Virus record (IMG/VR): IMGVR_UViG_3300044706_000059
Span: 1-64,000 of that record
Direction: 5' to 3' (one strand)
DNA length: 64,000 nt
Source: an uncultured virus (IMG/VR IMGVR_UViG_3300044706_000059)
Taxonomy: Duplodnaviria > Heunggongvirae > Uroviricota > Caudoviricetes > Crassvirales
Part shown: positions 3,962-56,400 of the stretch, piece by piece
How the letters are laid out: every line of letters starts with the position of its first letter
How positions within the stretch are numbered: position 1 is the first letter of the stretch
Notes under the pieces: generated by a model
What the model saw: only the letters and a program-made list of their open reading frames with translations
Database searches by the model: none
Told to the model about the DNA's origin: nothing
Translations under genes and position numbers: made by a program

Positions 3962-4276
3962 TTATTTTTTAGGTTTATCAACTTCTTCTGTTGTAAATGA
4001 CGCGCCAGATGTTTTATATAATTCGAGTATCTGTTCATAGTATTGAATACGCAATTCCGGAGGCATCCCTTTCTCTTTGTTTAATATTTCATGTAGCTGC
4101 TGGGCCTTGGTAATATTATCATCCTTATTAACTGTAAGAACAACCTTATCGGTTAATATCCCATTCATTATTATTTTAGTAGCTATTTCTTTTACTATTT
4201 CATCGCTTATTACTAGGACCGCCCCATCCTTTAACTCGAAGGCCATACCGATTTTAGTTACTTGTTCTTCTGTCAT
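3962..4276 (-). CDS. Hypothetical phage protein
   Basis: 104-aa ORF co-oriented with the operon. Confidence 0.6.
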   Translation of the reverse strand: MTEEQVTKIGMAFELKDGAVLVISDEIVKEIATKIIMNGILTDKVVLTVNKDDNITKAQQLHEILNKEKGMPPELRIQYYEQILELYKTSGASFTTEEVDKPKK

Positions 4277-4359
4277 GGTTCTACGTTTATAGCATGTTTG
4301 GTTATTAAAATATTTTCCTTACCCCTAAAATCCATAAGATTTATAAAATTTATATACTC

Positions 4360-4689
4360 TCATATAGCTTGTTTAACTGCATTTATTATTTCTTCTAAGC
4401 CTTCCTCAGAAATCTGCCAGCATAAAAGATTAAGATCAGCTAAGAGTACTGTTTCGTTCTTATTGAATTCTCTTTTGAATTGTTCCCGGTATTCGTTGGT
4501 TGTATTGTTGTGATTCAGAAAGTGAAGCTCTACATTCTTAACAGCATTAAGGACACCTTTTATTCGCATCTTCAAATCTCTTTTGGTATCATCCACCATT
4601 AACCTGGCACCATACTCTGCCAGTAAACTACCAATTATCATAATTTTAATGGCATCTACTGTATCCTGTTTTACTTGTGACTCGTTCAT
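4360..4689 (-). CDS. Hypothetical phage protein
   Basis: ORF overlapping the upstream stop. Confidence 0.6.
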   Translation of the reverse strand: MNESQVKQDTVDAIKIMIIGSLLAEYGARLMVDDTKRDLKMRIKGVLNAVKNVELHFLNHNNTTNEYREQFKREFNKNETVLLADLNLLCWQISEEGLEEIINAVKQAI

Positions 4690-4943
4690 TGGTTTGATTG
4701 TTGAGCGATATACTTTTCATATAATTGTTCTGTGGTTATACTTTCGGTAGCATCATTTATATTAGTCCATTGATCTTCATCGGTACATGAATATTCACAT
4801 TGACTTTGTAATGTCCATTTCATGAATGCAACTGCTTGTTGTTGTGCATATTCTTCCATTGCTACAACTACATTGCTGTATTCCTGAGCTTCTAATAAAC
4901 TACAATCGTTACAATGTTTATCTCGTATTTGTTCTGCTGTCAT
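4686..4943 (-). CDS. Hypothetical protein with AMEEYAQQQA-type module
   Basis: Module shared with the C-terminus of 4940..5599. Confidence 0.65.
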   Translation of the reverse strand: MTAEQIRDKHCNDCSLLEAQEYSNVVVAMEEYAQQQAVAFMKWTLQSQCEYSCTDEDQWTNINDATESITTEQLYEKYIAQQSNQ

Positions 4944-5599
4944 TGATTAGGTTCTTGGTGAATAAATTCATCATATAATTCATGGGTATTTATCCTTCCA
5001 CCGTCCCATGTGTCAATATCATGTGGTTTATGGTTGAATGCTATATAATTAGCAAATGCTATTGCTTGTTGCTTAGCAAATTCATCCATCGACTTAGGAA
5101 TGCCGCTTGCAAGATGTTCGTTTGATTTAAGGTCGAGATTAAAGCCTTCTCTAAATTCAGAAACCGTTATTTGTTTTTCGAGATATTTTTGGCACCATAT
5201 TGAGCGCCACCGGAAATACATTTTATTGGCAAGAAGCTGCCAGTTGTTAAACCTGTGATCGTGTAACCGACGCGGCTTTTTTTCGACGCTAAGATGCCCT
5301 GTTTCCCATATATAGATTAATCCGTATCGCTTATCAACTTCTTCTTTCTTAATCAAGTCCTTTGGACATACATAATAGAAGTAATTGGCGCAATTGTCGG
5401 ATTTATGTTTTTCTTTCTTTGCGTCGCTAAAATAATCTGATCTACTAATTTTTATCTCAAACTCTTTCGCTATTCCGTCAACGTCTAGTGCCCAGTAATC
5501 GGACTCCCATCCATATATGAAGGCATTAGGTACCTGGTAAGGATATTCCCGGTTATCGATCCAGCGGGCAAGCTCCTGAACAATGGATTTTTCTGTCAT
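4940..5599 (-). CDS. MmcB-like PD-(D/E)xK nuclease with a C-terminal extra module
   Basis: ESDYW..EFEIKISRSDYFSD..NYFYYVCP..YGLI. Confidence 0.7.
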   Translation of the reverse strand: MTEKSIVQELARWIDNREYPYQVPNAFIYGWESDYWALDVDGIAKEFEIKISRSDYFSDAKKEKHKSDNCANYFYYVCPKDLIKKEEVDKRYGLIYIWETGHLSVEKKPRRLHDHRFNNWQLLANKMYFRWRSIWCQKYLEKQITVSEFREGFNLDLKSNEHLASGIPKSMDEFAKQQAIAFANYIAFNHKPHDIDTWDGGRINTHELYDEFIHQEPNQ

Positions 5600-5708
5600 C
5601 GCTCCTTTTTTAATATTATATAGTTCTTTTCCTCAACCAATCCTGTGTATTCAAACCATACATTAGAGTCGCAAATTATTTGAGAATCAATAAGTACCTG
5701 CTCTTTAG

Positions 5709-5858
5709 TCATAATCTTGAAATATGTTTACCAATTAAATAAGACAAATAAAAGCCTATAAGAGAAGTTAAGGGAGAATACTCTAATGGTATATGTGTAC
5801 CTATGTAAAGTATAGTAAGAAGGGATATAGATAGTATGACTATTTTATATGGTTTCAT
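5709..5858 (-). CDS. Small two-TM membrane protein, 49 aa
   Basis: Manually translated MKPYKIVILSISLLTILYIGTHIPLEYSPLTSLIGFYLSYLIGKHISRL; coupled to both neighbours. Confidence 0.5.
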   Translation of the reverse strand: MKPYKIVILSISLLTILYIGTHIPLEYSPLTSLIGFYLSYLIGKHISRL

Positions 5859-6250
5859 TATGGTCGTGGGTATAGCGGATCTAATTGACTTAACCTTTTA
5901 TAATAAGCTTCTTCAAAACTCTTATTATTTTTTATTTGTGGATAATAAGCACGAAGAACATTTAAACTATTACATGACATAATATCTAACACTGTCAATC
6001 CTATTTCTCTATCTTCTGGTTTTACTTGTATTGAAGGTAAATAAGTATTGTTAGGAGTTACTTGGTAAGAACTTGGATGTTCATACACTCTACATCCACT
6101 TAAATACGCTTGTTGCAATATATATTCGTTGGCTTTGGCATAAGGTGGTTCTTCCGTTTCCTGATCGTAGGTCAGTTCATGCTTAAACCATTTCTTATTA
6201 CCATCAGGCAATGTAAATTCTTGGCTTACTCCTATTTTACAATCTTTCAT
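5858..6250 (-). CDS. Hypothetical phage protein (start revised to ATG at 6250, MKDCKIG)
   Basis: The track start at 6319 overlaps the upstream gene, whose stop ends at 6253. Confidence 0.6.
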   Translation of the reverse strand: MKDCKIGVSQEFTLPDGNKKWFKHELTYDQETEEPPYAKANEYILQQAYLSGCRVYEHPSSYQVTPNNTYLPSIQVKPEDREIGLTVLDIMSCNSLNVLRAYYPQIKNNKSFEEAYYKRLSQLDPLYPRP

Positions 6251-6252
6251 TT

Positions 6253-6423
6253 TTATATTGTGTTTACTAAAGCACGTTGATGCATTTTCTTTTCTTCCTC
6301 TGTTAATCCTTCCCAGCAATCCTTACAAACTACAGGATAACCGTGTTCATAACCGTTTTTAAATGGCATTACACAAAGTTCACATGCTTCTCCATTAATT
6401 ATTTGATCTGCGATATCACCCAT
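6253..6423 (-). CDS. Small zinc-ribbon protein, 56 aa
   Basis: MGDIADQIINGEACELC...GYPVVCKDCW; two CxxC pairs. Confidence 0.65.
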   Translation of the reverse strand: MGDIADQIINGEACELCVMPFKNGYEHGYPVVCKDCWEGLTEEEKKMHQRALVNTI

Positions 6424-6452
6424 AAATTATAGTTTGATTATTTTAAAATAAA

Positions 6453-6472
6453 GCTCCTATAGAAATAGGAGC
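6453..6472 (-). terminator. Intrinsic terminator-like hairpin
   Basis: GCTCCTAT/ATAGGAGC 8-bp stem followed by TTTATTTT on the minus strand. Confidence 0.55.
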
Positions 6473-6517
6473 CGTTTTATTATCACTTACCTTATGAAAA
6501 AAATATCAGTTTAAAAA

Positions 6518-6542
6518 AGCTCCGACCGAGTGCATCGGAGCT
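6518..6542 (-). terminator. Intrinsic terminator-like hairpin downstream of the RNA array
   Basis: AGCTCCGA/TCGGAGCT stem followed by a T-run on the minus strand. Confidence 0.6.
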
Positions 6543-6691
6543 ACACTAATCAGTAATACCAATAACCATAAACCTTATCCCTAAAAGAGTTAAATATTTT
6601 TCTGTAGAAAATCTCTGAGGTAGACACCCCGAGACTTTATGAGGGAGTCCCGTTCCTCATTAAACATTGCGTACCCTAAAAAAACAAAAAG

Positions 6692-6774
6692 TTAGGAGCG
6701 GCCATATTTCGCAACTCTTGCCTTTGGGTCTCCAACGAATACACTTTAGTATCCGGGCGATATTTCTCTCCTAA
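6692..6774 (-). ncRNA. Structured RNA module A of the array
   Basis: Closing stem TTAGGAG/CTCCTAA; internal hairpins CGGATAC/GTATTCG and TTGG-AGAC-CCAA. Confidence 0.55.
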
Positions 6775-6782
6775 TTAAAAAG

Positions 6783-6884
6783 TTTATTGGTTATACATGG
6801 TTCATCAGGCAGGCACTCAACTGGTAACCACAAACCTTAACCGGTATCAGCGCCCTTTCCGGGTTCGGAGTTATAACCAATAAA
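6783..6884 (-). ncRNA. Structured RNA module B
   Basis: Perfect 13-bp closing stem TTTATTGGTTATA/TATAACCAATAAA; internal GGGCGCT/AGTGCCT. Confidence 0.6.
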
Positions 6885-6891
6885 GAACGTA

Positions 6892-7042
6892 TGTATTTAT
6901 AGCTGCATTCGGTTTAGCTTACATAGTTTATTGTCGCTCACTTTCGGACTACTTAACCGGAAAGCTGTCTTTGAATACAGTTAAAGCGCGGCTTCTTAGC
7001 TATTTGATCAATTCTTCGCGCTAATGCACTACTATAAATACA
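6892..7042 (-). ncRNA. Structured RNA module C
   Basis: 11-bp closing stem TGTATTTATAG/CTATAAATACA extended by TGCATT/AATGCA; internal AGCGCG/CGCGCT. Confidence 0.6.
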
Positions 7043-7050
7043 ATAAAGTA

Positions 7051-7195
7051 TGTATTGACTAAAATCTGGCGGCGATTATTTTCGTGCTGCAAATCACGGG
7101 TTTTCGAAATCAGGATTGCGTTTTAAGCAATAAAGCTACTTCCCAACTGAAGCCATCCTTCCAGAATCAGCTTGCAATACCTATTAGCCAATACA
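7051..7195 (-). ncRNA. Structured RNA module D
   Basis: 12-bp closing stem TGTATTGGCTAA/TTAGTCAATACA whose one irregularity is a G-U pair on the minus strand. Confidence 0.6.
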
Positions 7196-7226
7196 ATAAG
7201 ATGTATATTATATTTTAAAGAACTTT

Positions 7227-7386
7227 CCCGGAGGGGTCGGTCTTTCCCGACTGTATAGGCCATATAAGCTGTACCTTCTCCGTGTTTTTATCGTGTCCAC
7301 GCGCTCACGTTGTATTATTCAAGTCCCCATAAAGGAACTGCACATCTCAGAACGGGGCCAGGATATGCGACTTAATTCACCCCGGA
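7227..7386 (-). ncRNA. Structured RNA module E
   Basis: Closing stem TCCGGGG/CTCCGGG; hairpins GCATATC/GATGTGC, AGTTCCT/GGGGACT, GTCGG/CCGAC. Confidence 0.5.
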
Positions 7387-7567
7387 TGGTGGATATGACT
7401 GGTGCCGACCCAGCTATCTGACAGTTGCCCCGCCCGCATTAGCGCCGCCAATGCTACCATACCTAAGAGCAGTTGATTAAAGAGTACTGCAAAACTCTGA
7501 GTGTTGCATTTGTTTTTTGCGCCATCCACCTAAGAACGCGTCACTGGTTGAACCACACAATCTATCC
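7387..7567 (-). ncRNA. CCA-ended tRNA-like / mini-tmRNA-like RNA
   Basis: 3' end GCTGG-GTCGGCA-CCAGT-CATATCC-ACCA; H-type pseudoknot at 7469-7498; tmRNA-like resume context AAAAAACAAAT-GCA. Confidence 0.45.
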
Positions 7568-7578
7568 AATAAGTTTAA

Positions 7579-7650
7579 TGACGGATGACAGGATTTACAC
7601 CTGCACCTTTACGTGATATGTTTGTGCTAAAAGTTACACCACATCCGTCA
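7579..7650 (-). ncRNA. Degenerate tRNA (acceptor, D and T arms intact; anticodon arm collapsed)
   Basis: ACGGATG/CATCCGT acceptor, GTGT/GCAC D stem, GCAGG-TGTAAAT-CCTGT T arm. Confidence 0.55.
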
Positions 7651-7657
7651 AAAAGTT

Positions 7658-7759
7658 TATTATCCCATTGTCCATGTATTCGATGTTTGTTAGGTCTTCA
7701 ATGAGTGTCATAACTATCGCCTTCAGGATCGCTTACGCGCTTTTGTCAATGGGATAATA
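7658..7759 (-). ncRNA. Structured RNA module G
   Basis: Perfect 13-bp closing stem TATTATCCCATTG/CAATGGGATAATA. Confidence 0.55.
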
Positions 7760-7826
7760 TGGTGCCGCCGTCCTTTCGGCATTCATTACTTATGAGATAA
7801 CGAATCGTTGTTTGCAACGCGGCGGG
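7760..7826 (-). ncRNA. 67-nt cloverleaf tRNA mimic with CUCAUAA loop and ACCA end
   Basis: CCCGCCG CGTTG-CAAA-CAACG ATTCGTTAT-CTCATAA-GTAATGAAT G CC-GAAA-GG A CGGCGGC ACCA. Confidence 0.65.
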
Positions 7827-7845
7827 TTTATTTCAAAGAATGTTA

Positions 7846-7921
7846 TTGGCTATTACGGATATTCCCGACTAAGCTCAGTAATTAACCCGCATCCTTTATG
7901 GAGGGAAGGATTAATAACCAA
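7846..7921 (-). ncRNA. Structured RNA module I
   Basis: 10-bp closing stem TTGGTTATTA/TAATAGCCAA (U-G on minus); hairpins ATCCTT/AAGGAT and CGG/CCG. Confidence 0.55.
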
Positions 7922-7939
7922 CTATTTAAAGAACTTATA

Positions 7940-8084
7940 TTCCCGGAGGGGGGCCAGTACCTTCATATATACTGGCCGGAGGTTAATCAATAACACACAA
8001 CTTCTTCATTTACTAATTCAGTTTCATCAAGATTAGTATCACATTGAGCAAAAAGTGAATAGTGATATACTAAATCAACGGGAA
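7940..8084 (-). ncRNA. Structured RNA module J (first in transcription order)
   Basis: TTCCCG/CGGGAA closing stem; GGCCAGTA/TACTGGCC hairpin; 3' tail shared with module E. Confidence 0.45.
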
Positions 8085-8104
8085 ATCCTGCTAACCAATA
8101 ATAT

Positions 8105-8368
8105 TCATTCAAAATGTGCTTTTAAAATATCAAGATCATATTGATCAATATTCGCCTTTACACATACTTCAAGTGTGCCTATACCAGATTTAAATGCCTC
8201 TCTAACTTCAGTTGATATCCCGTGACTTTGAATAATGGTTGCAAGACAACATGCGTATCCTTGTATAAAAGTGTTTTTTATTAGATTGCATCCGCTTATG
8301 CAATAATTCCGGCTTTTGCCACAATTACACTTATAAGCTACAATACCTTCTGATTCTAGAGTTTTCAT
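8105..8368 (-). CDS. Hypothetical Cys-rich phage protein
   Basis: Operonic ORF directly upstream of the RNA array. Confidence 0.6.
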   Translation of the reverse strand: MKTLESEGIVAYKCNCGKSRNYCISGCNLIKNTFIQGYACCLATIIQSHGISTEVREAFKSGIGTLEVCVKANIDQYDLDILKAHFE

Positions 8369-8371
8369 TAC

Positions 8372-8617
8372 TTAATTTTTAAACTGTCCGGAGGTTACTT
8401 GATCTTGAACAATTTCATTTTCATCAATATCTGAACAAGGAATAAATAATTCCGAATTATAAACAATTCCCAAATCATGCATGAGTTCATACCATAAGAC
8501 ATCATCTTCATCAATTTCTTCGTCAACCACATTATATACTTCACCAAATTTTAAATTAAATGGTGCTTCGTCAGGGCTGAATCCATCAGGAGATGTATTT
8601 ATGCACATTACTTTCAT
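8372..8617 (-). CDS. Hypothetical protein (MKVMCI..LKFGEVYNV, SH3-like)
   Basis: Pattern typical of small phage beta-barrel proteins. Confidence 0.6.
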   Translation of the reverse strand: MKVMCINTSPDGFSPDEAPFNLKFGEVYNVVDEEIDEDDVLWYELMHDLGIVYNSELFIPCSDIDENEIVQDQVTSGQFKN

Positions 8618-8618
8618 A

Positions 8619-8906
8619 CTATAAAAAGTTTTTAAACAGTTCTTCTTTGTTTAACATTGAAATATCACCGCGTTCTGATCTTACCATAAACACATCTTCT
8701 CCACTATCACTTTTACCACATATAATTCCTTTCTGAGCCATGTAGGTAAGTAGTTCTAAACAGGTTTGTTCCATATAATAATCCATTGCATTTAATGCTG
8801 CCTGTTTAAATGCTAACGGAAATTCTTTAGGATTAATACTCGATGTACCTAACTCTGCTGTCCAAACAGTATGTTGTTCGTTTAATATTTCCTCTTTAGT
8901 TTTCAT
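8619..8906 (-). CDS. Hypothetical protein (AMDYY module, related to 4686..4943)
   Basis: Shared short motif; operonic. Confidence 0.6.
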   Translation of the reverse strand: MKTKEEILNEQHTVWTAELGTSSINPKEFPLAFKQAALNAMDYYMEQTCLELLTYMAQKGIICGKSDSGEDVFMVRSERGDISMLNKEELFKNFL

Positions 8907-9130
8907 TTACCTTTTGATTTCTTCTTTGAATTAATAGACCTAAGTAATACATTGGACATAGCGGTTGAATAGCTTTTGGCTCCATCTTCAAAACATATTG
9001 AATGATCTATAAGAACCATTTCCATGTATGCCTTTACTGACATTCGGTTTTCGATTGCATTATTAGATAATATACGCAATGTATTTTCCGGTATATCAAT
9101 TAGCTTTCTTATCTCATTCCCTTTCTTCAT
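8903..9130 (-). CDS. RHH-like DNA-binding protein (start revised to ATG at 9130)
   Basis: RKLIDIPENTLRILSNNAIENRMSVKAYMEMVL; a TATTTTTG -7 box lies just upstream of 9130. Confidence 0.55.
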   Translation of the reverse strand: MKKGNEIRKLIDIPENTLRILSNNAIENRMSVKAYMEMVLIDHSICFEDGAKSYSTAMSNVLLRSINSKKKSKGK

Positions 9131-9217
9131 ATGCCAAAAATATATACAAACTATATAGAAACAAAATTTATTTTTCACTGATTTTTAAAATACCCAATTA
9201 ATGGTATTCAAATAGAA

Positions 9218-9256
9218 AAAGCCGGACACAGATTCGACTATTATCTGCCCGGCTTT
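9218..9256 (-). terminator. Terminator-like hairpin after 9297..9548
   Basis: AAAGCCGG/CCGGCTTT stem with a T-run on minus. Confidence 0.5.
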
Positions 9257-9296
9257 GGCGGCTAAAATTGAATATATTATGAACGATAATAAAAAA

Positions 9297-9548
9297 CTAG
9301 TTCAATTCTGGGATTGTTTCATCTACTTCATCTTCTGGTACTCCTGCGTTATGTGGTAATACTAGAAATACTTCTTCTCCTTCATTTTCCATGTTTTCGT
9401 CTGGGCCCAATTTACTTATGCCAGTATTATCAGGACACGCCGGCGCGAAAGCAAACATACCTGGTTTCAAATGGTTTTCCACCATGACCATTACTTCTAA
9501 TTCGTCGGTTTCAGGTGTTAATAACGCACGTAGTTCTTTACCTTTCAT
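9297..9548 (-). CDS. Hypothetical acidic protein
   Basis: 83-aa ORF with A-rich leader. Confidence 0.6.
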   Translation of the reverse strand: MKGKELRALLTPETDELEVMVMVENHLKPGMFAFAPACPDNTGISKLGPDENMENEGEEVFLVLPHNAGVPEDEVDETIPELN

Positions 9549-9616
9549 AACTATTTTTTATTGAAGGTAGTTTATTTAACTGTTCGGTAATTCCTAAGTG
9601 TTCAGTTTACAGAGGC

Positions 9617-9644
9617 TCTCTTAATGTCTCTTAAACTCTCTTAA
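9617..9644. repeat. Three TCTCTTAA direct repeats with 10-bp period
   Basis: Copies start at 9617, 9627 and 9637. Confidence 0.7.
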
Positions 9645-9816
9645 AAAGTAGAAAAAGTATAGAATAAGGATACTATTGTATGCTTATTTTAAACGTATAG
9701 TTGCTTGAATTGGTCAGGGCATATCAAATATAACCCTAACTACTCGAAATAAAAAAAGGCTCCGCTGACTGTTAATACAAACCTACAGGGAGCCTATGAC
9801 GGAACTTTCAAAACCG

Positions 9817-10254
9817 TCAGTCTCTTTCGCCACTTGCAAATGAAATCTGGATGCTTGAAGTCCAACCCTTACCGAATGTGCCATCCAGCGCTGACAATAA
9901 GGCTTCGGCTACTTTATGAGAGCCTTTCTTTGATTGCAATTGTTTAATAAGTTCATCCTTAATAGCTTGAGAATTTGTTTTTATTTGCTCAATAAGCTCT
10001 TTTTTTACTTCTTCCTGAATGATTTTAGTAACGTGATAATCGAGCCATGTGTGTTTATTATCGCTTTCATAGCGATTCACTTGCCCGTTAGAATCAACTT
10101 TAGTGTTGCATATCTGATGAATAACACCGGCTACTATTTTTTCAGAACCGCCCAATGCCGCTAAAACTGCTTCTTGAATTTTTGCGGCAACAATAGGCTG
10201 TGTTACTTCATTTGGAATTGAAAGATTCACCAATGATGAATTGTGTGTTGACAT
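9817..10254 (-). CDS. Hypothetical phage protein
   Basis: 145-aa ORF; promoter-like TTG..TATATTG upstream; AGGCTCC/GGAGCCT hairpin downstream. Confidence 0.7.
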   Translation of the reverse strand: MSTHNSSLVNLSIPNEVTQPIVAAKIQEAVLAALGGSEKIVAGVIHQICNTKVDSNGQVNRYESDNKHTWLDYHVTKIIQEEVKKELIEQIKTNSQAIKDELIKQLQSKKGSHKVAEALLSALDGTFGKGWTSSIQISFASGERD

Positions 10255-10430
10255 TTTGAAAGTTTTTAATTGTTAATAAATGAGCCTGCAATATAACACC
10301 AACTAACACCCAAATGCAAGAGTACTTTTACTCGATCGTAGCCAATAAAACGTTAATTGACATATATCAAAGGTTACCGACATTTATGTCGTCAACATAT
10401 CACACAACCTTGATAATAAAACCACACAAC

Positions 10431-10631
10431 CTAACTAGTGTGGGTTGTGTGGTTTTCATTCATAAGCCACTTTAAACGGTCAAGATATCTTTCTAATTCT
10501 TCCCGGGTTGGCACTTTTTCATATTTTGGCCTTTCATGAAATTGGTTACCACCACAAGTATGCGGTATAGCTTTTCGTGTCTTCACACCATCCCGGGCGA
10601 AGGAACACGCTTGACAAAAGGTGCTTTTCAT
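10431..10631 (-). CDS. Small Cys/His protein (CQAC..HTC)
   Basis: 66-aa ORF with a zinc-ligand pattern. Confidence 0.55.
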   Translation of the reverse strand: MKSTFCQACSFARDGVKTRKAIPHTCGGNQFHERPKYEKVPTREELERYLDRLKWLMNENHTTHTS

Positions 10632-11335
10632 ACTATAGATAAATGCATTCAGGTTACAAAGGTTACCAACCAGGGCAATAAATATTTTCTACCACGGCGC
10701 TCATTCGAGCACCATACCCATTAAATGCAGTGCCCAATATCTCACAAAATAGCCCATAAAAAAGCCATAACCAATTGACCGACACTAAGTAAATAGCGTG
10801 CCCAAAACCCACCAATCCAGTTAAAACAACTCAGCACTTTCATTAAACATCAGCAACTAACCCTGGTTGACGGTAGGCGCGTTTGACAGCAGGGCCTCGG
10901 GCATGGGGTTTCGGAAAACTATAAGTCAATCCCGGTTTTTGCCGGTAAGGGATCGTTTTTAAAGTGCTATTGCCGTGATATGTGGTTGTCGCTGCGCGTA
11001 GCCTGCGATATTCTATTGTAGTTGCTATTCAGTGTTATCTACGCAATTAATATCAGGTGCTGGTATTGAAGACGTGGTGGGGCTACAGGGGGAAATTAAC
11101 CGCGTACAGCCACCGTTGGAAGATACCCCCGCCTCCACAGCGGAGCCGCCACCTTGGGGGAAGTCATCTTGCTGACTCGGGTGGCTCATGTTTCACTTCC
11201 TGGATTGTATGTAATGTTTTTTGCCATGGTTTTGATGGTCAATGGGTTATGGGCTAAGACTATTTTGGATGAGGAGGGTAATGATAGTATGAGTTGTTTG
11301 TTGTTCCTTTTGTATTGTATAGCGGGAGGTGGGGA

Positions 11336-11478
11336 TTAGCGTAAAAGAAAGAAGATTTGGGGAGAATGATAACGTAAAAAAGTTTGGCTAGCGTAAAGGA
11401 TTAGCGTAAATTAGCGTAAGAAATGAACTAATTTATTAACGCTAAAAATTACGGTAACTTAAATTATGATTACGGTAA
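11336..11478. repeat. Cluster of TTAGCGTAA-type repeats
   Basis: Direct copies at 11336, 11369 (variant), 11388, 11401, 11411; inverted variant at 11437; ATTACGGTAA at 11448 and 11469. Confidence 0.75.
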
Positions 11479-12650
11479 ATTGTATTGAATGCGGCAAAAC
11501 TTTCGACGCTCAACGCTCATCTGCAAAATTTTGTTCCCCTAATTGCAGGGTGAAATGGAACAATAAACCTGAAAACAAAGATAAACCTGAAGAAATCGAA
11601 GAAATACAAAAATCGGAGCCTAAAACTAAAATGGTAGTTACCCCAACAGAATTAAAAGAAGCCCCTTCTGAGGAAAGTTGGAAAGTAGTTAGGGATACTA
11701 TGGATAAGATAAATAAAGATTTTGGTGCCGGCTCAGTGATGATACTAGGAGACAAGCCTATGAAATCAATTGAATCCATCTCTACAGGCTCATTAGGCCT
11801 TGATAATGCATTAGGTATTGGCGGATTGCCTCGGGGCAGAATTGTTGAAATTTTCGGCCCTGAAAGCTCAGGAAAGACCACTTTAGCCATCCATATAATC
11901 TCAGAAGCCCAAAAAATGGGCTTGAAATGCTTTATAGTGGATGCTGAACATGCATTTGACCCTACTTATGCTGAATCTTTAGGGGTAAAAATTGATGAAC
12001 TAGGTATTTCGCAGCCAGATTATGGAGAACAAGCCCTTGAAATAGCTGATAGAATGATACTTACAGGGCAATATGCAGTAGTAATTATTGATAGTGTGGC
12101 CGCTTTAACCCCGAAATCTGAACTTGAGGGTGAAATGGGGGACAGCAAAATGGGTTTACATCCCCGATTAATGGGTCAAGCATGCAGAAAAATGACCGCA
12201 ACAGTTTCAAAAACAAATACTTTACTCATATTCATTAATCAAGTTCGCCAAACTATTGGGAATATGTATGGCCCATCTGAATTTACTCCTGGTGGCAATG
12301 CATTGAAATTCTTCTCATCTGTGCGTATTGACATCAGATGTAATGCCCTCTTAAAAGATGGAGAAGATGTATTTGGCCGAAGGTCAAAAGTAAAAGTTGT
12401 AAAAAGTAAAGTAGCCCCACCTTTTAAAAACTGTGAATTTGATATAATCTATGGCGAAGGGATTGACAAAATAGGAGAATTGATCGAAATAGCAGCAAAC
12501 TTACAGGTAATTCAAAAAGCTGGTAGCTGGTATAGTTATCATGAATCTAAACTAGGTCAAGGGAAACAACAAGTAAAAGAAATGCTGAAAGATCATGAAC
12601 CTTTACTTAATGAGATCACTCTAAAAGTGAAAGAAAAGATTAATAACTAG
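11466..12650 (+). CDS. recA: RecA recombinase with an N-terminal C4 zinc finger
   Basis: GPESSGKTT Walker [36 protein letters not shown]-terminal [15 protein letters not shown]. Confidence 0.95.
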
Positions 12651-45252: not shown

Positions 45253-45896
45253 TGATAAGAGGTGCATTTTTGGAATCCATTTTAATGCAGATATATGGCG
45301 AGAAAATAACAGATGATGCTGAAATTACCTATAACCTGGTAAATCTATATTGTCAGGAAGGAATTGCAGTAGCGGCACAAGCATCCTATAAAACTGCTAT
45401 ACAATTAGATGGGGTAGGATATATTAATAGTGGTTTTTATAGTACCTTTTCTGGATTGCCTATAGTTCAAGATAACACTGATAATCTATGTTATAAGTTT
45501 GTACTTCCAGAAATTCCAGTAGGTATTGCCGCAAATATGGGGGTGGCTGAGGTAAGATTTAAAGGTTCAGATGGTTTTACTTCTTTCCCAGGTATCCCGT
45601 TAAGCATGAATCAATGGTCGTATTTTGATAGTATGCCTCCGATTGCTAATAAGGTTCTTTATTTACCAGAAGGGAAAACAGTAAGAGCCAAAACACCACT
45701 AATATTAAGTCTATATACAGCAACGGTAAAAATAATTAGTGGAGGAGATACAACCGATCTAAACTCTGAGTTAAACGTTCCTCCCGATTCTATTCCTGTT
45801 ATTCGTCAATATATTATAGAAAAACTTTTAGCCCAACGTTCAATATCAACTGATGATGTAAATAATGGAAAAGATGATAATTTAAAACAATTATGA
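45252..45896 (+). CDS. Tail ring / tubular protein
   Basis: Coupled gene in the tail module; C-terminal DDVNNG. Confidence 0.55.
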   Translation: MIRGAFLESILMQIYGEKITDDAEITYNLVNLYCQEGIAVAAQASYKTAIQLDGVGYINSGFYSTFSGLPIVQDNTDNLCYKFVLPEIPVGIAANMGVAEVRFKGSDGFTSFPGIPLSMNQWSYFDSMPPIANKVLYLPEGKTVRAKTPLILSLYTATVKIISGGDTTDLNSELNVPPDSIPVIRQYIIEKLLAQRSISTDDVNNGKDDNLKQL

Positions 45897-46162
45897 TAAA
45901 ACCTATAAGAGATAATATTGTAGTACAAGCATTCCCATCAGATGAAATTTCAGATGGCGGTATTTTTGTTTCAGAAGCACATAGAGAAGTAAGTTGCAAA
46001 ATGAAGGTAATTGCAGTAGGAAATGGAACTAAAAAAGAGCCCATGAAACTAAAACAGGGAGATGTCGTATTTAGAGTAAAGGGAATGGGAACAGAAATAG
46101 AAATTAATAAACAGACCTATTTTATAGTTAAACAATCGTGGTTAATTGCTCAATTAAATTAA
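45893..46162 (+). CDS. groES: Co-chaperonin GroES
   Basis: IKPIRDNIVV..SDGGIF..VIAVGNG..LKQGDVV..GTEIEIN. Confidence 0.85.
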   Translation: MIKPIRDNIVVQAFPSDEISDGGIFVSEAHREVSCKMKVIAVGNGTKKEPMKLKQGDVVFRVKGMGTEIEINKQTYFIVKQSWLIAQLN

Positions 46163-51991: not shown

Positions 51992-53458
51992 ATGGCAGTA
52001 GCTACTATAAATCCTTGGGCAGCGGGAGCTGTTGTATTTGATCAGCGTCCATTTTTACAGTTCTATGAGCAACAAATGGCTCGTAAACAAGCAAAAGATG
52101 ATGCTTTAGATAATTATTTCCGTGACCTTAATAAAAATGTTACATCTGCCGGCATGCGTTCACAAGATGTATCTAGTTTATTGAAAAAGCAACAGGATGC
52201 ACAGCAGTATTATTTTCAAAATAAGGCTCAGATATTAAATCCAAAATTAGATAATGGAGCAGCTTATTCCGAATATCAGGCACGGCATCAAGACATGCTA
52301 GGGTTAATTGATCAAAGCAAAGAAGCTGCTAAATCTATGGATGAGATAGGTAAAATGAAGTTAAACCCTCAGATGTCATACATATTTGAAGACCCAAAAT
52401 TCATGGATCAATTACGATCCCATGAATTACCAATAGGTGATCCAAATAGGAAGGGTATAACTTTAGCTTCATTAACTGTTCCAGATAAACCAGTTGATAT
52501 TAAAGAATGGGATGCGTATAATAAATATTTAACAGGAGGAATACCACATGATAAAATACCTGGAGAAACAAAAAGTATAGGTAATTTCAAAACAAGCACC
52601 CCTATTTATCAGCAATACAGTCCTGAAAATCAAAAAGTAATTGCCGAGCATGCAATGAATGCTTACGAAAGTGATAGAAGATGGCGTACAGAAGCTAACA
52701 AAACATTTCAGGATATTATGCATGATCCTATGAAATATGATCAGTATAATAAAATGTATAAATCTATATACGGGAAAGATATTGATACTCCTAAAGAAGC
52801 ATGGGCAGCAAAAGGGATTATAGATAATAATATGAAGGCGGTGGAATACAAAGAAGGAGAAGACTTTGTGGCTAAGGAAAGATTCAAAGATGCTTTAAGT
52901 AGAGCAAGCCAAGAAGAATTGATAAAATTCAGGAAAAATATTGATCCTAATGATATGGAATTGAATAATCAATGGATTGATCGGTATTTACAAAACAGAT
53001 TGCAAACCGCAATGTCAGATGAAGCCAATTATAGAAAAGTTTATACACCACATACAACAAAGTACGGATATGAAATAAGCATGGATCCGGTTTTGGCAAA
53101 GTCATTTTCAAGGGGAGGCAGTGAACCAGATAGACTATATGTAACAGATGATGGACAAAAAATATGGCCTATCTTCTATAAATACGAAAAAGACCCTAAA
53201 ACAAAACAAACCATTCTTGTTAAAAATGATAAAGGCGATCCAGTGATAGATGAAGATATTAGTAAACCTTTAGAAATGGATCAAGCTAAATTAGCAATGG
53301 GATATAGAGGAGAAACAAAAAAACAGTTAGGCAAGACTATGAGTTCCAAAACTAAATCGACACAACCTAAATATCCTTTGCCGGCAGGTAAACCTGCAAC
53401 AGTAAAACAAAACGGATATACATATCATTGGAATAGCGAAATAGGATCGTATGAGTAG
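51992..53458 (+). CDS. Internal virion / ejection protein
   Basis: 488-aa helical protein; C-terminal QNGYTYHWN..YE. Confidence 0.6.
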   Translation: MAVATINPWAAGAVVFDQRPFLQFYEQQMARKQAKDDALDNYFRDLNKNVTSAGMRSQDVSSLLKKQQDAQQYYFQNKAQILNPKLDNGAAYSEYQARHQDMLGLIDQSKEAAKSMDEIGKMKLNPQMSYIFEDPKFMDQLRSHELPIGDPNRKGITLASLTVPDKPVDIKEWDAYNKYLTGGIPHDKIPGETKSIGNFKTSTPIYQQYSPENQKVIAEHAMNAYESDRRWRTEANKTFQDIMHDPMKYDQYNKMYKSIYGKDIDTPKEAWAAKGIIDNNMKAVEYKEGEDFVAKERFKDALSRASQEELIKFRKNIDPNDMELNNQWIDRYLQNRLQTAMSDEANYRKVYTPHTTKYGYEISMDPVLAKSFSRGGSEPDRLYVTDDGQKIWPIFYKYEKDPKTKQTILVKNDKGDPVIDEDISKPLEMDQAKLAMGYRGETKKQLGKTMSSKTKSTQPKYPLPAGKPATVKQNGYTYHWNSEIGSYE

Positions 53459-56400
53459 TAAAACATTTCCATCTAGTGGCACAAAGCCAAAATTTAACCC
53501 AGATGCAGATTATGAAGCTGTAGCAGATGCTCCTACGCCGAAAAGTAATAAACCCGCTTTTAATCCAAATGCTCATTTTGAACCAGTTCATGAAGAAAGA
53601 ACAGAGCCGGTTGCACAACCGGCTTTTCATGTTGAATTATCAACCCCTACATTTAAATCAGCACCTGCACAAACAGGGCCTAATACCTTTCAATATAATG
53701 CACCCGCAGAAGCAGGCGACATTATTAAACTAGGAGGTAAAGCTAGAGTAGCACAAGAAAATCTACATAAAGAATTATCTACCAATAAACAAGCATTAGG
53801 CAGAGTTATAGTTAATGATAGGATAAAGCAACAAGAAAAAAATAGACAAGCGGGCATAGTCGGCCCACAATTAACTGATCCATTATTTATAACTGATGAC
53901 GATTTAAATAAGGTAAATACCGAAGCTACAACTAATAGAGATAGAGCTAACCAAGTACTTAGTGCTGCCATGCAAATAAATCCTGAAAAAGCTCAGGAAA
54001 TACAAAAGAATGCTTACATGGTGGATGCCTTTAATAATGCTGCTCAGGATGTGAACGGAAATGAAAGGGTTAATAAAATAGAAGAAAACGCAAAGGCTAT
54101 TAGCAAAGGAGAATTGAATTATGACCATCACAACCAAATATTAAGTAAGCCGGAAGGATTCTTTGGAAGTTTAGTTTCTGCAAGAAATGAATTGAATAGA
54201 TTATCTGATGCCTACGATTATACCAAAAAAATGGAAGATGGAGGAAATGAAGCAGGTATAATAATGGAATTGAATAATAGAATAAAACGTGATCCAGATG
54301 AACCTGTTAAAATGCCAACAGGGTTATTGGGACATTTAGGCGCTAATATTGGAGGAATGCCCATTAAGGGATTAGCCGCCGGTACTGTAGCAGGTATTGG
54401 TACCTCACTGTTAGGTAATCCAGAAGCATCCGAAGCTGCGTTTAATATGGCAAGTGCAGGGGTAAATGCTAATGATATGTACAAAATAGGATATCAAAAT
54501 GCATTAGAGCAAAACTATGCCCTATTAAAACGGGATCATCCAGATATGCCAGATTATACCGCTTTTAAACAAGCTCAGGATTTAGCAGGTAAACAAGCGG
54601 TGGTTGATGCTGCATCGGCAGCAGCAATGCAATATTTAGGAGGCAAAGCCGGTTTTGGGGCAAGTAAACAATTGGCAAAGGGAATATCGAGTGGCTTATC
54701 ACAAGTAAAAGATGAATTGGGTAAAAAAGCATTTGAATCATTAGGGGTAGGTGCTATAGGGGCTGGCGGCCAAACTATAAAAAATCTGATGGCTCAAAAT
54801 GCAGGATTGAATGTACCCACATCCGAAGGCGCAATGGATCAATTTACTACAGGATTATTAATGACAGGTGCAATGTCAATGTTAGGATTAGGTAAAGATA
54901 TTTTGAAACCATTCACAAAAGCCAAATTAGCAAGTGGTATAGCTAAATTACCTGATAATGTAGTTGAACAAGGATTAAATAAAGTAGAGCAAGCAGGTCA
55001 TTTAACACCAGAACAGTTACAGAATGTAAAAGATATAATTAGCGAACAAAAAGCATTAGAAAATTCAATACCAGAAACGCTGCCGGAAAGCGATAGACAA
55101 AAAATAGGTGACAAGATAAAGGAGCGTTCACAACTAAAACAGCAATTAGAACAAGTAGATGAAGCGTATCATCCTGAATTAAAAGATAAAATAAAAAAAC
55201 TAAATGAAGATATATTAAGCATATCGAAAGGTTCAGAACGAGGTGAATTGCAACAGTTAGTTCATGGCGAAATTAACAAAGGGAATGTGCAAGGATATTT
55301 AACCGATATCCTACGAAATGCCAACGAAAAGGAATTAGAGCAATATATGAAGGAAATTTCCGAGCAAGCACATGATCCAGCATCCGAAGAAAATACAATT
55401 AAAACCTTCGGAGAAAAAATAGTTAATAAGGCTAAAGAATTATATCCGAAAAAAGAATCAGCCGTTTCAGTAATACAACCTGGGGAAATAAAACAACCTG
55501 AAACTATTACAATTGCACCACGCGAAAGGCCATCAGATATAAAATCTACTGAAAATGTATCAGTAATAATGCCTAATGAGGCAGGAGCCGGTAAGGTAGT
55601 TCCCGACAATATTGGTCATGTGGAAGTTAGCGAACATGGGGAAGATACCAAAACGGAAGCTGGTCAAGAAAATGGTACTCAACCTTCCAAACTTTCCGAA
55701 GATGGAATTAAGGAAGCTAAAGAACTGGGCAATTATTTAGCAGAAAATAATAAAACAAAAATAATTACCAGTGAAGTTCAGCGGGCGCAAGAAACGGCCC
55801 ATACTGCTGCTGCGGAAGTCAAAAATGCAACTGGTAAAGAAATACCAGTAGAAACTAACCCTTTGTTAAATACATGGAATATTGGTGAATATGACGGTAA
55901 GCCAGAAGGATCATTCAATGAAAAAGAATGGATAGATAAACCCAATGAAGCCCCAAAAGGCGGGGAAAGTTTTAATGACTTTAAAGGTCGTATGGAGCAA
56001 GCATATCAATATGTAAAATCATTACCAGAAGATAATCACGTCGTTTCTCATTCAAAAGTAATGAGAGCATTAGAAGCCTTAAAACAAACAGATGGTAAAT
56101 GGACAGACGAAACAACAAAGGAATTTTTAAACAATAAAGAATTACCCAATGCCGTTCCAATCCAAAGCACAAATGGCCTGGATGTTCGCCAACAAACCGG
56201 CAATGGCGAAACGATGGGCGAAGGAAACACCCAACCCGAAATCATTACCGGAACACAAGGAGGAAGCACCGAAGAAAAAAGTAATGATCAAGGTGAGGAA
56301 AACAAAATAGAAAATCTTACCATTGATGATGCATACGGATTACCATTTATTGATGAACCGGGAGATAAAAGAACAGGGGTTAAAAATAAAATTTCTGACC

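Follow-up and report, generated by a model that had tools for sequence, protein, structure and literature searches.

A candidate CAU tRNA-like RNA in a modular non-coding array of a soil phage

IMG/VR record IMGVR_UViG_3300044706_000059 (76,331 bases; labeled G000 below) comes from an uncultured virus, and its first 64 kb, positions 1 to 64,000, form the window analyzed here. On the minus strand of the window lies a 67-nucleotide (nt) element, which we call module C, in which a tRNA-like acceptor end with an encoded ACCA is combined with the 7-nt anticodon loop of a CAU tRNA. We found that module C folds into a four-way junction, that this fold is preferred on one strand, that the element sits among other structured modules in a non-coding array, and that a closely related phage carries an unrelated unit in its place. 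Module C is probably a real RNA module. The reading that we favor, and hold tentatively, is that of a strand-specific, self-contained accessory small RNA that imitates both ends of a CAU tRNA and belongs to an array of exchanged RNA units; that its likeness to tRNA was selected or inherited, rather than arising by accident, is a plausible view that we hold with some doubt.

The genome belongs to a soil phage that is a distant relative of Flavobacterium and Cellulophaga podophages. Its terminase is 26% identical to the terminases of Flavobacterium and Cellulophaga phages (85 records, each below 60% identity), and a Bacteroidota-like host is likely on this sequence evidence.

Predicted fold of module C and comparison with tRNA

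Read 5' to 3', module C opens with the acceptor-like strand CCCGCCG (7826-7820), continues with the hairpin CGTTG-CAAA-CAACG (7819-7806) and with a 9-bp stem-loop containing two G-U pairs (7805-7781; ATTCGTTAT-CTCATAA-GTAATGAAT), the loop of which reads CUCAUAA (7796-7790), and ends, after a single G, with a CC-GAAA-GG mini-hairpin (7779-7772), an A, the strand CGGCGGC (7770-7764) and ACCA (7763-7760). The closing helix, 7826-7820/7770-7764, consists of six pairs and a C1 x C72 mismatch, and the loop-proximal pairs of the 9-bp stem are U-G, A-U and U-A. A first-pass annotation of the window had listed the acceptor, the CAAA hairpin, the CTCATAA stem, the GAAA mini-hairpin and ACCA as parts of a minimal cloverleaf, and all of them are present at 7826-7760 on the minus strand.

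RNAfold returned the four-way junction as both the minimum free energy and the centroid structure (-22.3 kcal/mol, 43% of the ensemble). The fold has a z-score of -3.25, and none of 200 shuffled sequences folded as well. The plus strand of 7760-7826, on which the two G-U pairs of the stem are lost, adopts a different fold with a z-score of -0.78, and 43 of 200 shuffles were as good. The strand preference of the fold argues for a minus-strand RNA, and the flanking early genes have that orientation too. Sequence and RNAfold thus bore out the annotated likeness to an acceptor end and to the anticodon loop of CAU tRNAs.

In common with tRNA-Met and tRNA-Ile2 (CAU; Rfam RF00005), module C has four helices meeting at one junction, an acceptor helix of 7 positions that leads into A73-CCA, and a CUCAUAA loop of 7 nt that carries U33 and has a purine at position 37. 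The setting is similar as well, in that module C adjoins an element that scores as a tRNA and that relatives of the phage carry CAU tRNA-like genes. Unlike a tRNA, module C has neither U8 nor a position-9 linker; its "D arm" is a 5-bp stem with a 4-nt CAAA loop, lacking G18-G19 and a linker; its anticodon-like stem has 9 bp instead of 5; and its "T arm" is a 2-bp stem with a GAAA loop, for a total length of 67 nt. Because it has no D/T elbow, module C is not a standard decoding tRNA, and the annotated expectation that it probably cannot decode held: neither ARAGORN nor Rfam calls it. The proposed initiator hallmarks fared less well. Bacterial initiator tRNA-fMet combines a C1 x A72 mismatch with three consecutive G-C pairs at the bottom of the anticodon stem. 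Module C does have a 1:72 mismatch and A73, but the mismatch is C x C rather than C x A, and its anticodon-like stem is without the three G-C pairs.

Module C can also be set beside RNAs that depart from the standard tRNA plan. Armless mitochondrial tRNAs, which lack the T or the D arm, are likewise short, elbow-less cloverleafs that retain an acceptor stem and an anticodon loop. Unlike module C, they keep a 5-bp anticodon stem and decode via dedicated factors, and the mitochondrial (-mt) mode of ARAGORN calls nothing on the minus strand of module C, giving only a plus-strand D-loop mtRNA-His(atg) at 7765-7826. A literature search found no report of armless tRNAs in phages. The vtRNAs of the herpesvirus MHV68, mascRNA, and the tRNA-like domains of YrlA and tmRNA owe their RNase P/Z processing, CCA addition and stability to tRNA ends, and do not decode. 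This class imitates the acceptor-T elbow, whereas module C has no elbow and carries an anticodon loop instead; the nearby module E (Table 1), with acceptor, D and T arms and no anticodon arm, is closer to the class than module C is. Rfam gave no match to YrlA, tmRNA, GOLLD or ROOL, either in the window at gathering scores or over 6200-8200 at E ≤ 10. Both tRNA mimics that do not decode and phage RNAs processed by RNase P are known kinds of molecule, and a limited literature search found no description of an elbow-less mimic that joins an acceptor/CCA end to an anticodon-type loop.

Modules of the non-coding array and their exchange

Module C lies within a non-coding array (Table 1) that is flanked by an open reading frame (ORF) ending at 8105 and by one starting at 6423 (6423-6253). 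Minus-strand frames across the array reach 65 codons when TAG is read as sense, 104 codons when TGA is, and 130 codons, counted stop to stop, when TAA is; alternative genetic codes opened no convincing minus-strand gene there. We also rejected as a gene the plus-strand frame 7812-8036 (74 amino acids [aa], TTG start), which is cut in a variant phage described below by a 69- to 107-nt replacement, a change that is not a multiple of three.

Table 1. Features of the non-coding array
Feature	Position	Strand	Description
Whole non-coding array	6440-7980	minus	about 1.5 kb, no credible ORF; same orientation as the early genes on either side
Array head	7925-7977	minus	G+C-rich hairpin 7977-7952, then motif CCTCCGGGAA-N4-GTTCTTTAAA at 7949-7925
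Module B	7845-7922	minus	10-11-bp closing stem, two hairpins, three-way junction; directly upstream of module C
Module C	7760-7826	minus	67-nt four-way junction; sequence and RNAfold
Module D	7658-7759	minus	perfect 13-bp closing stem 7759-7747/7670-7658 around 76 nt (inverted repeat I4)
Module E	7580-7648	minus	tRNA-like: acceptor, D and T arms; 13 nt in place of the 17-nt anticodon arm
Second motif copy	7214-7234	minus	CCTCCGGGAA-AGTTCTTTAAA; preceded by a GTCGG/CCGAC hairpin
13-bp-stem module	6783-6884	minus	perfect closing stem around 76 nt (inverted repeat I3); fold z-score -1.84
Two intrinsic-terminator-like hairpins	6452-6542	minus	6542-6518 and 6473-6452, with T tracts; close the array before ORF 6423-6253

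The array head looks promoter-like or processing-like. Its CCTCCGGGAA motif occurs twice in the window and in none of 100 shuffles, and the array-head motif is also present in the related record G005 and in two metagenome contigs, L061 and L062. Right after the first copy follow four adjacent structured modules, B, C, D and E, with fold z-scores of -2.75, -3.25, -4.83 and -2.60, respectively, module C being the second. For module B, one of 200 shuffles folded as well (plus strand, z-score -1.26); for module D, which starts one base after the ACCA of module C, none of 200 did. Other parts of the array have no excess structure, with z-scores of +1.05 at 7060-7186, +0.87 at 7292-7440 and +2.12 at 7440-7566.

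Module E matches the Rfam tRNA family RF00005 at 33.4 bits (gathering score 29; E 1.2e-4 and 1.1e-6) and is not called by ARAGORN in bacterial mode. Its flanks lengthen the acceptor helix by about 12 positions, to 7568-7661, and the z-score given above includes this extended stem. A stem of 2 bp is possible in the 13-nt stump that replaces the anticodon arm; it would close a 7-nt loop, AUAUCAC, with U33 and A37. Further along, the module at 6783-6884 is homologous to a module of G005 and L061, with which it has TTCTTTATTG ... ACCGGTTAA ... CAATAAACT in common. The best explanation of the locus as a whole is a putative non-coding RNA operon of about 1.5 kb, built of stem-closed modules arranged head to tail, some of them tRNA-like, and running from a promoter-like motif to two terminators.

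We found the variant phage by mapping contigs from four runs of one soil sample onto window positions 4000-11000. No RNA run is listed as holding the sequence. Two runs labeled metatranscriptomic are flagged "probably DNA", and we drew no inference about expression from them; their contigs cover 7251-7576 and 7650-7758 of the variant, which is without module C. In the aligned pieces the variant is 95-97% identical to G000, with 51 changes in 1,487 bases over 4363-5849 and five changes and one gap in 194 bases over 7828-8021, and the two are collinear except for sharp replacements. At module C, the joints lie at 7758/7828: 69 bases are out and 107 unrelated letters are in, the ends of module C are matched within one base, and the boundaries of the exchanged unit coincide with its predicted 5' end and its ACCA. 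This replacement was seen in contigs from two runs of the sample. Further replacements extend from 7588 to 7650 (module E), from 6789 to 6870, where 204 letters take the place of the interior of the 6783-6884 module, and from 7061 to 7185 with 64 letters between, and two more changes lie in ORFs further up.

Modules B and D are retained in the variant. Between G000 and the variant, module D shows one compensatory change, from G-C to A-U at 7718/7682, which suggests selection on this neighbor of module C. The same alternation of constant and variable parts was found independently between G005 and L061, where the framework blocks (the motif, spacers, closing-stem strands and one whole module) are 97 to 100% identical and the interiors are unrelated. 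Together, the replacements in the variant and the alternation between G005 and L061 indicate, as far as sequence comparison goes, that the array is a modular locus in which predicted RNA modules are exchanged between close relatives, module C being one such unit.

The variant also lacks the 87-aa ORF at 8105-8368 (397 bases, window 8022-8418, are skipped), and at window 8790-9184 it has 858 other bases in place of 395. The early region is therefore mosaic in small ORFs as well as in RNA modules.

Constant frameworks with changing interiors could also be expected of one large RNA of the GOLLD or ROOL kind, covering much of 6440-7980 and made up of a conserved core and swapped tips, with module C as a peripheral domain. 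Closing stems and spacers are indeed conserved while interiors vary, both between G005 and L061 and between G000 and the variant at 6789/6870, and the non-coding aligned pieces (97.4% identical over 7828-8021 and 6870-7061) are as conserved as the ORF-bearing ones (95.0-97.0%). Modules C and E, however, are replaced together with their closing stems, the global fold has no convincing long-range framework, Rfam gave no match to a large-RNA family, and the sequences are too few for covariation. We regard a single large RNA as very improbable.

Chance, relatives, and the CAU theme

How readily a fold like that of module C arises by chance was measured with a descriptor of six inner acceptor pairs followed by NCCA and enclosing three hairpins, matches being called tight when the core had at most -11 kcal/mol and the junction at most 3 unpaired bases. 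The real window contains two loose matches, of which module C is the sole tight one. Tight folds equal to module C occurred in 11 of 150 dinucleotide shuffles of the window, and a further 170 shuffles gave 25 tight folds. The middle loop had 7 nt in 6 of these 25, and none had both U at the second and a purine at the sixth loop position; among 302 loose shuffle matches, one had an anticodon-type loop. We estimate the chance of a module C look-alike at a few in a thousand per window. Over a very large scan such a chance is not negligible, and the context of module C therefore matters.

Relatives were collected with a RecA/UvsX search, which gave 49 related IMG/VR loci. One 99% identical record is a fragment; it begins shortly before the recombinase gene and does not include the array region. 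The framework motifs of the array are common only to G005, G006 and the contigs L061 and L062. A covariance model (CM) built from the single sequence of module C found no homologue in the 49 loci (51 sources, 919,225 bases), and an exact 32-mer search of IMG/VR found none either. When the CUCAUAA loop and the GCCGAAAGGA junction were fixed in a pattern, it matched one IMG/VR locus and 81 loci in GTDB genomes, the latter about the number estimated for chance; on CM re-scoring the pattern loci reached 17.6 bits at best, and 11.9 bits in another case, with many pairs broken, which is noise. Searched against IMG/VR, the stem pattern of module D gave no locus and a framework 23-mer returned G005 only. 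The closing-stem pattern TTCTTTATTG-N60-90-CAATAAACT gave 120 loci, every one unrelated on inspection, and a 19-nt motif gave five metagenome loci, of which L064 and L065 are chance matches and L063 is G005 again.

BLAST of 6400-8100 gave no match among INPHARED phage records and only short motif matches in five related records. No PHROGs family was found for the eight ORFs that flank the array, and no relative in IMG/VR for the 130-aa protein neighboring it, which is matched in one of the five related genomes (G006). Conservation of the CAU loop and ACCA among homologues, the lack of which the first-pass annotation had named as a refutation, fails: the closest variant has the unrelated 107-nt insert, and the searched collections hold no homologue. 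This shows that module C is accessory and not that it is inert.

Genes resembling CAU tRNAs recur across this phage group. A CTCATAA stem-loop with a T arm behind it is present in 8 of 60 sequences (59 loci and the window), all eight being more distant relatives: L021 (17079-17141), L025 (16875-16954), L022, L023, L027, L036, L037 and L041. Their tRNA-Met-like gene has the CTCATAA loop and a TTCGATTCC T arm and lies about 7 kb downstream of the recombinase gene; only that of L025 scores as a tRNA in Rfam (33.3 bits), and ARAGORN called none of the four that were tried (L021, L025, L036 and L037). Closer to G000, the array of G005 contains a sub-threshold tRNA-like element of 27.9 bits in which 40 nt stand where the anticodon arm would be. 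The array of G006 contains another (L067:226-298, plus strand; 21.1 bits, E 0.12 in 900 nt), whose D loop is of the canonical GG type and whose 8-nt anticodon loop includes CAU, as well as a second sub-threshold element (L067:663-738, plus strand) with a good acceptor and T arm and an aberrant middle. This recurrence makes a tRNA-Met ancestry or model for module C more plausible than the loop alone would. In G006 we also observed direct repeats ATCTTAYTGT on both sides of a module of about 180 nt; window 7203-7186 aligns with one of the repeats.

Several results weigh against module C being an RNA that imitates tRNA. ARAGORN found no tRNA gene in the window, and none over 6301-8200 in relaxed bacterial modes; Rfam gave no match to module C in the window at gathering scores, and none of its five matches over 6200-8200 at E ≤ 10 overlaps module C. 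The 9-bp anticodon-like stem, the zero-length linkers and the 2-bp "T arm" are unlike those of any tRNA. There is no covariation support for the fold, CAU or ACCA, since no homologue was found in the collections searched, and module C is dispensable, given that the closest variant is without it. A scan that did not include Bacteroidota promoters found no promoter of known type directly upstream. A Pfam scan of 121 of the 123 ORFs of at least 55 codons (all except 60681-64910 and 70056-70223) revealed no tRNA-processing enzyme, synthetase, TROVE/Ro/Rsr protein or recognizable toxin. Finally, a chance of a few in a thousand does yield look-alikes when very many windows are scanned.

Module C might have neither tRNA kinship nor a function of its own, and consist of chance hairpins in a fast-changing, recombination-prone spacer or of a decayed tRNA-Met relic; CAU and ACCA would then be coincidences that caught the eye. 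It is an orphan and dispensable, tRNA detectors do not recognize it, tight cloverleaf folds with NCCA occur in about 7-15% of shuffled windows, and the three stretches of the array named above have no excess structure. Against this, the fold of module C dominates the ensemble and is strand specific; a tight fold and an anticodon-type loop occurred together in no shuffle; the unit replaced in the variant matches the ends of the fold within one base; and the neighboring modules are structured, module D with a compensatory change. In a decaying tRNA, moreover, pairs would be expected to disappear; a perfect 9-bp stem, junctions without linkers and a GNRA tetraloop would not be expected to arise. 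We consider chance or decay unlikely, while taking it seriously as a competitor of the accessory-RNA reading.

Possible roles of module C

If the array is transcribed, the acceptor-like helix and RCCA of module C could allow the host tRNA-end machinery to excise and stabilize it, with RNase P cutting at 7826/7827 and 3' trimming or CCA repair forming the end at 7760. The CAU-type loop, exposed on its long stem, would then be the active surface. As a decoy or competitor, it might tie up a host protein that recognizes tRNA-Met or tRNA-Ile2 by the anticodon arm, or it might pair with UUAUGAG-type start regions in the way of the C4 RNA of phages P1 and P7. An acceptor-like helix with RCCA is read by bacterial RNase P and by the 3'-end machinery. 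The CI RNA of P4 is, beside C4, a comparable phage antisense RNA, and C4 reportedly relies on its 3' CCA, according to work by Hartmann et al. in 1995. C4 RNA is about 77 nt long, has three stem-loops, is excised by RNase P and works through its loops (PMC5320573; see also the reference list of PMC4919922). On the strength of what RNase P reads and of the C4 precedent, we read module C as a small RNA that is probably released from the array transcript.

The resemblance to C4 extends to several features. Module C falls in the same class of phage RNAs of about 70 to 80 nt, with a closing stem and further stem-loops, and C4 is excised from a longer transcript by RNase P, its target being set by the sequence of its exposed loops (PMC5320573). 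Unlike C4, module C has a four-way layout instead of three stems, belongs to a Bacteroidota-like rather than a proteobacterial lineage, and has no identified target pair and no nearby immunity genes; the C4 family is also absent from the five Rfam matches at E ≤ 10 in 6200-8200.

An RNase P-excised antisense regulator of the C4/CI type, whose loops pair within the operon or at UUAUGAG translation starts, would fit this size class and logic (PMC5320573). Module D, next to module C, carries UUAUGA (7713-7708), which is complementary to six of the seven loop bases of module C, and in the variant, which is without module C, two of the six listed differences in module D (eight were counted), at 7710 and 7709, fall inside this UUAUGA. 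Full 7-nt complements lie at three real gene starts, 14828, 24119 and 18792. However, the genome has 15 TTATGAG sites, 12 of them not at gene starts, and AUG-containing words of 6 to 7 nt are common in an A+T-rich genome; a 6-nt complement of one loop in module D is not significant alone, and the other two loops of module C have just 4 nt. The AUG at 7711 that is complementary to the module C loop also starts a 25-codon frame (MTLIEDLTNIEYMDNGIINFLTDVV; window 7711-7634, minus strand) that begins in module D and extends into module E. With its AUG changed in the variant, the frame is unlikely to be a gene, and its failure to be retained there counts against the antisense proposal too. We judge such a regulator improbable.

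The first-pass annotation had instead proposed a decoy for tRNA-targeting defense factors or toxins, such as anticodon nucleases of the VapC type or acetyltransferases of the AtaT type, or a ligand of MetRS, formyltransferase or TilS, by which the phage would protect or manipulate the CAU tRNA pool. The CUCAUAA loop and A73-CCA are what such a molecule would present, and a cassette-like turnover of modules fits an arms race. Phage tRNAs do counter tRNA-cleaving defenses (PMC10264068 and PMC11464382); these counter-measures, however, are functional tRNAs and not decoys, and a limited literature search found no tRNA-like decoy in a phage. The stem of module C lacks the initiator G-C pairs and its mismatch is C x C, module C is not conserved, and no cognate nuclease can be named for a phage whose host is predicted only as Bacteroidota-like. 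Nothing in the 121 scanned ORFs points to VapC, AtaT, MetRS, formyltransferase or TilS, and no partner gene was found; the Pfam domains present are RecA, RusA, NinG, YopX, RNase H, an Rv2179c-like exoribonuclease, Cpn10 and an IS1595-type transposase. The decoy function is left unsupported by these results and is a conjecture without direct support, with little probability in our estimate.

A broader proposal, to which we likewise give a low probability, would make the 1.5-kb locus a tRNA-mimic cassette array: partial tRNA look-alikes, shuffled by recombination and matured by the host, would each neutralize a different defense or tRNA-binding enzyme, with module C as a CAU-specific decoy of the anticodon arm. 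On this long shot, module E and the G005 element would have kept the acceptor, D and T arms, and module C the acceptor/CCA end and the anticodon-type loop; with no elbow, its 9-bp stem might still hold the anticodon and the CCA end as far apart as in a tRNA. A limited literature search found no description of a cassette-shuffled operon of tRNA-mimic modules.

Other features of the genome were noted in passing. The only tRNA of the phage that scores fully lies outside the window, at G000 69171-69245 on the minus strand (Rfam 60.4 bits; L001:1499-1575; L270). Its anticodon is ACU (A34), it lacks a long variable arm, its T loop (TCCGAGC) is non-canonical, and its 3' end reads ACC and then T instead of CCA; it adjoins an IS1595-type DDE transposase gene (67962-69119). 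The RecA/UvsX-like recombinase (window 11466-12650, plus strand) has about 45 extra N-terminal residues that match HNH-endonuclease PHROGs, and several related contigs stop within a few hundred bases upstream of its gene, possibly at a terminus of the genome. Among the head genes is a Cpn10/GroES-like gene (45893-46162, plus strand), and a 1,861-aa protein of the structural region (53451-59036, plus strand) contains a histidine-phosphatase domain at residues 729-874.

Phages carry working tRNAs that replace host tRNAs destroyed by defense nucleases. If the favored reading of module C extends to a decoy, an RNA that does not decode and copies just those tRNA parts that are recognized would be a counter-measure of another kind, and a cheaper one; to our knowledge no such non-decoding phage RNA has been described, nor did a literature search find one. 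The fold and the modular context are solid, and the array as a whole is the more promising lead; the array and the tRNA-like module E merit attention even if module C is a product of chance. Whatever becomes of the decoy, the locus offers a concrete case of a terminator-bounded small-RNA operon in which near-identical phages have exchanged modules, with joints precise to the base. Modules B, C, D and E are defined candidates for small-RNA work in phages of soil Bacteroidota-like hosts, and the swapping of modules in the array suggests that non-coding RNA "morons" are exchanged in the same way as accessory genes.

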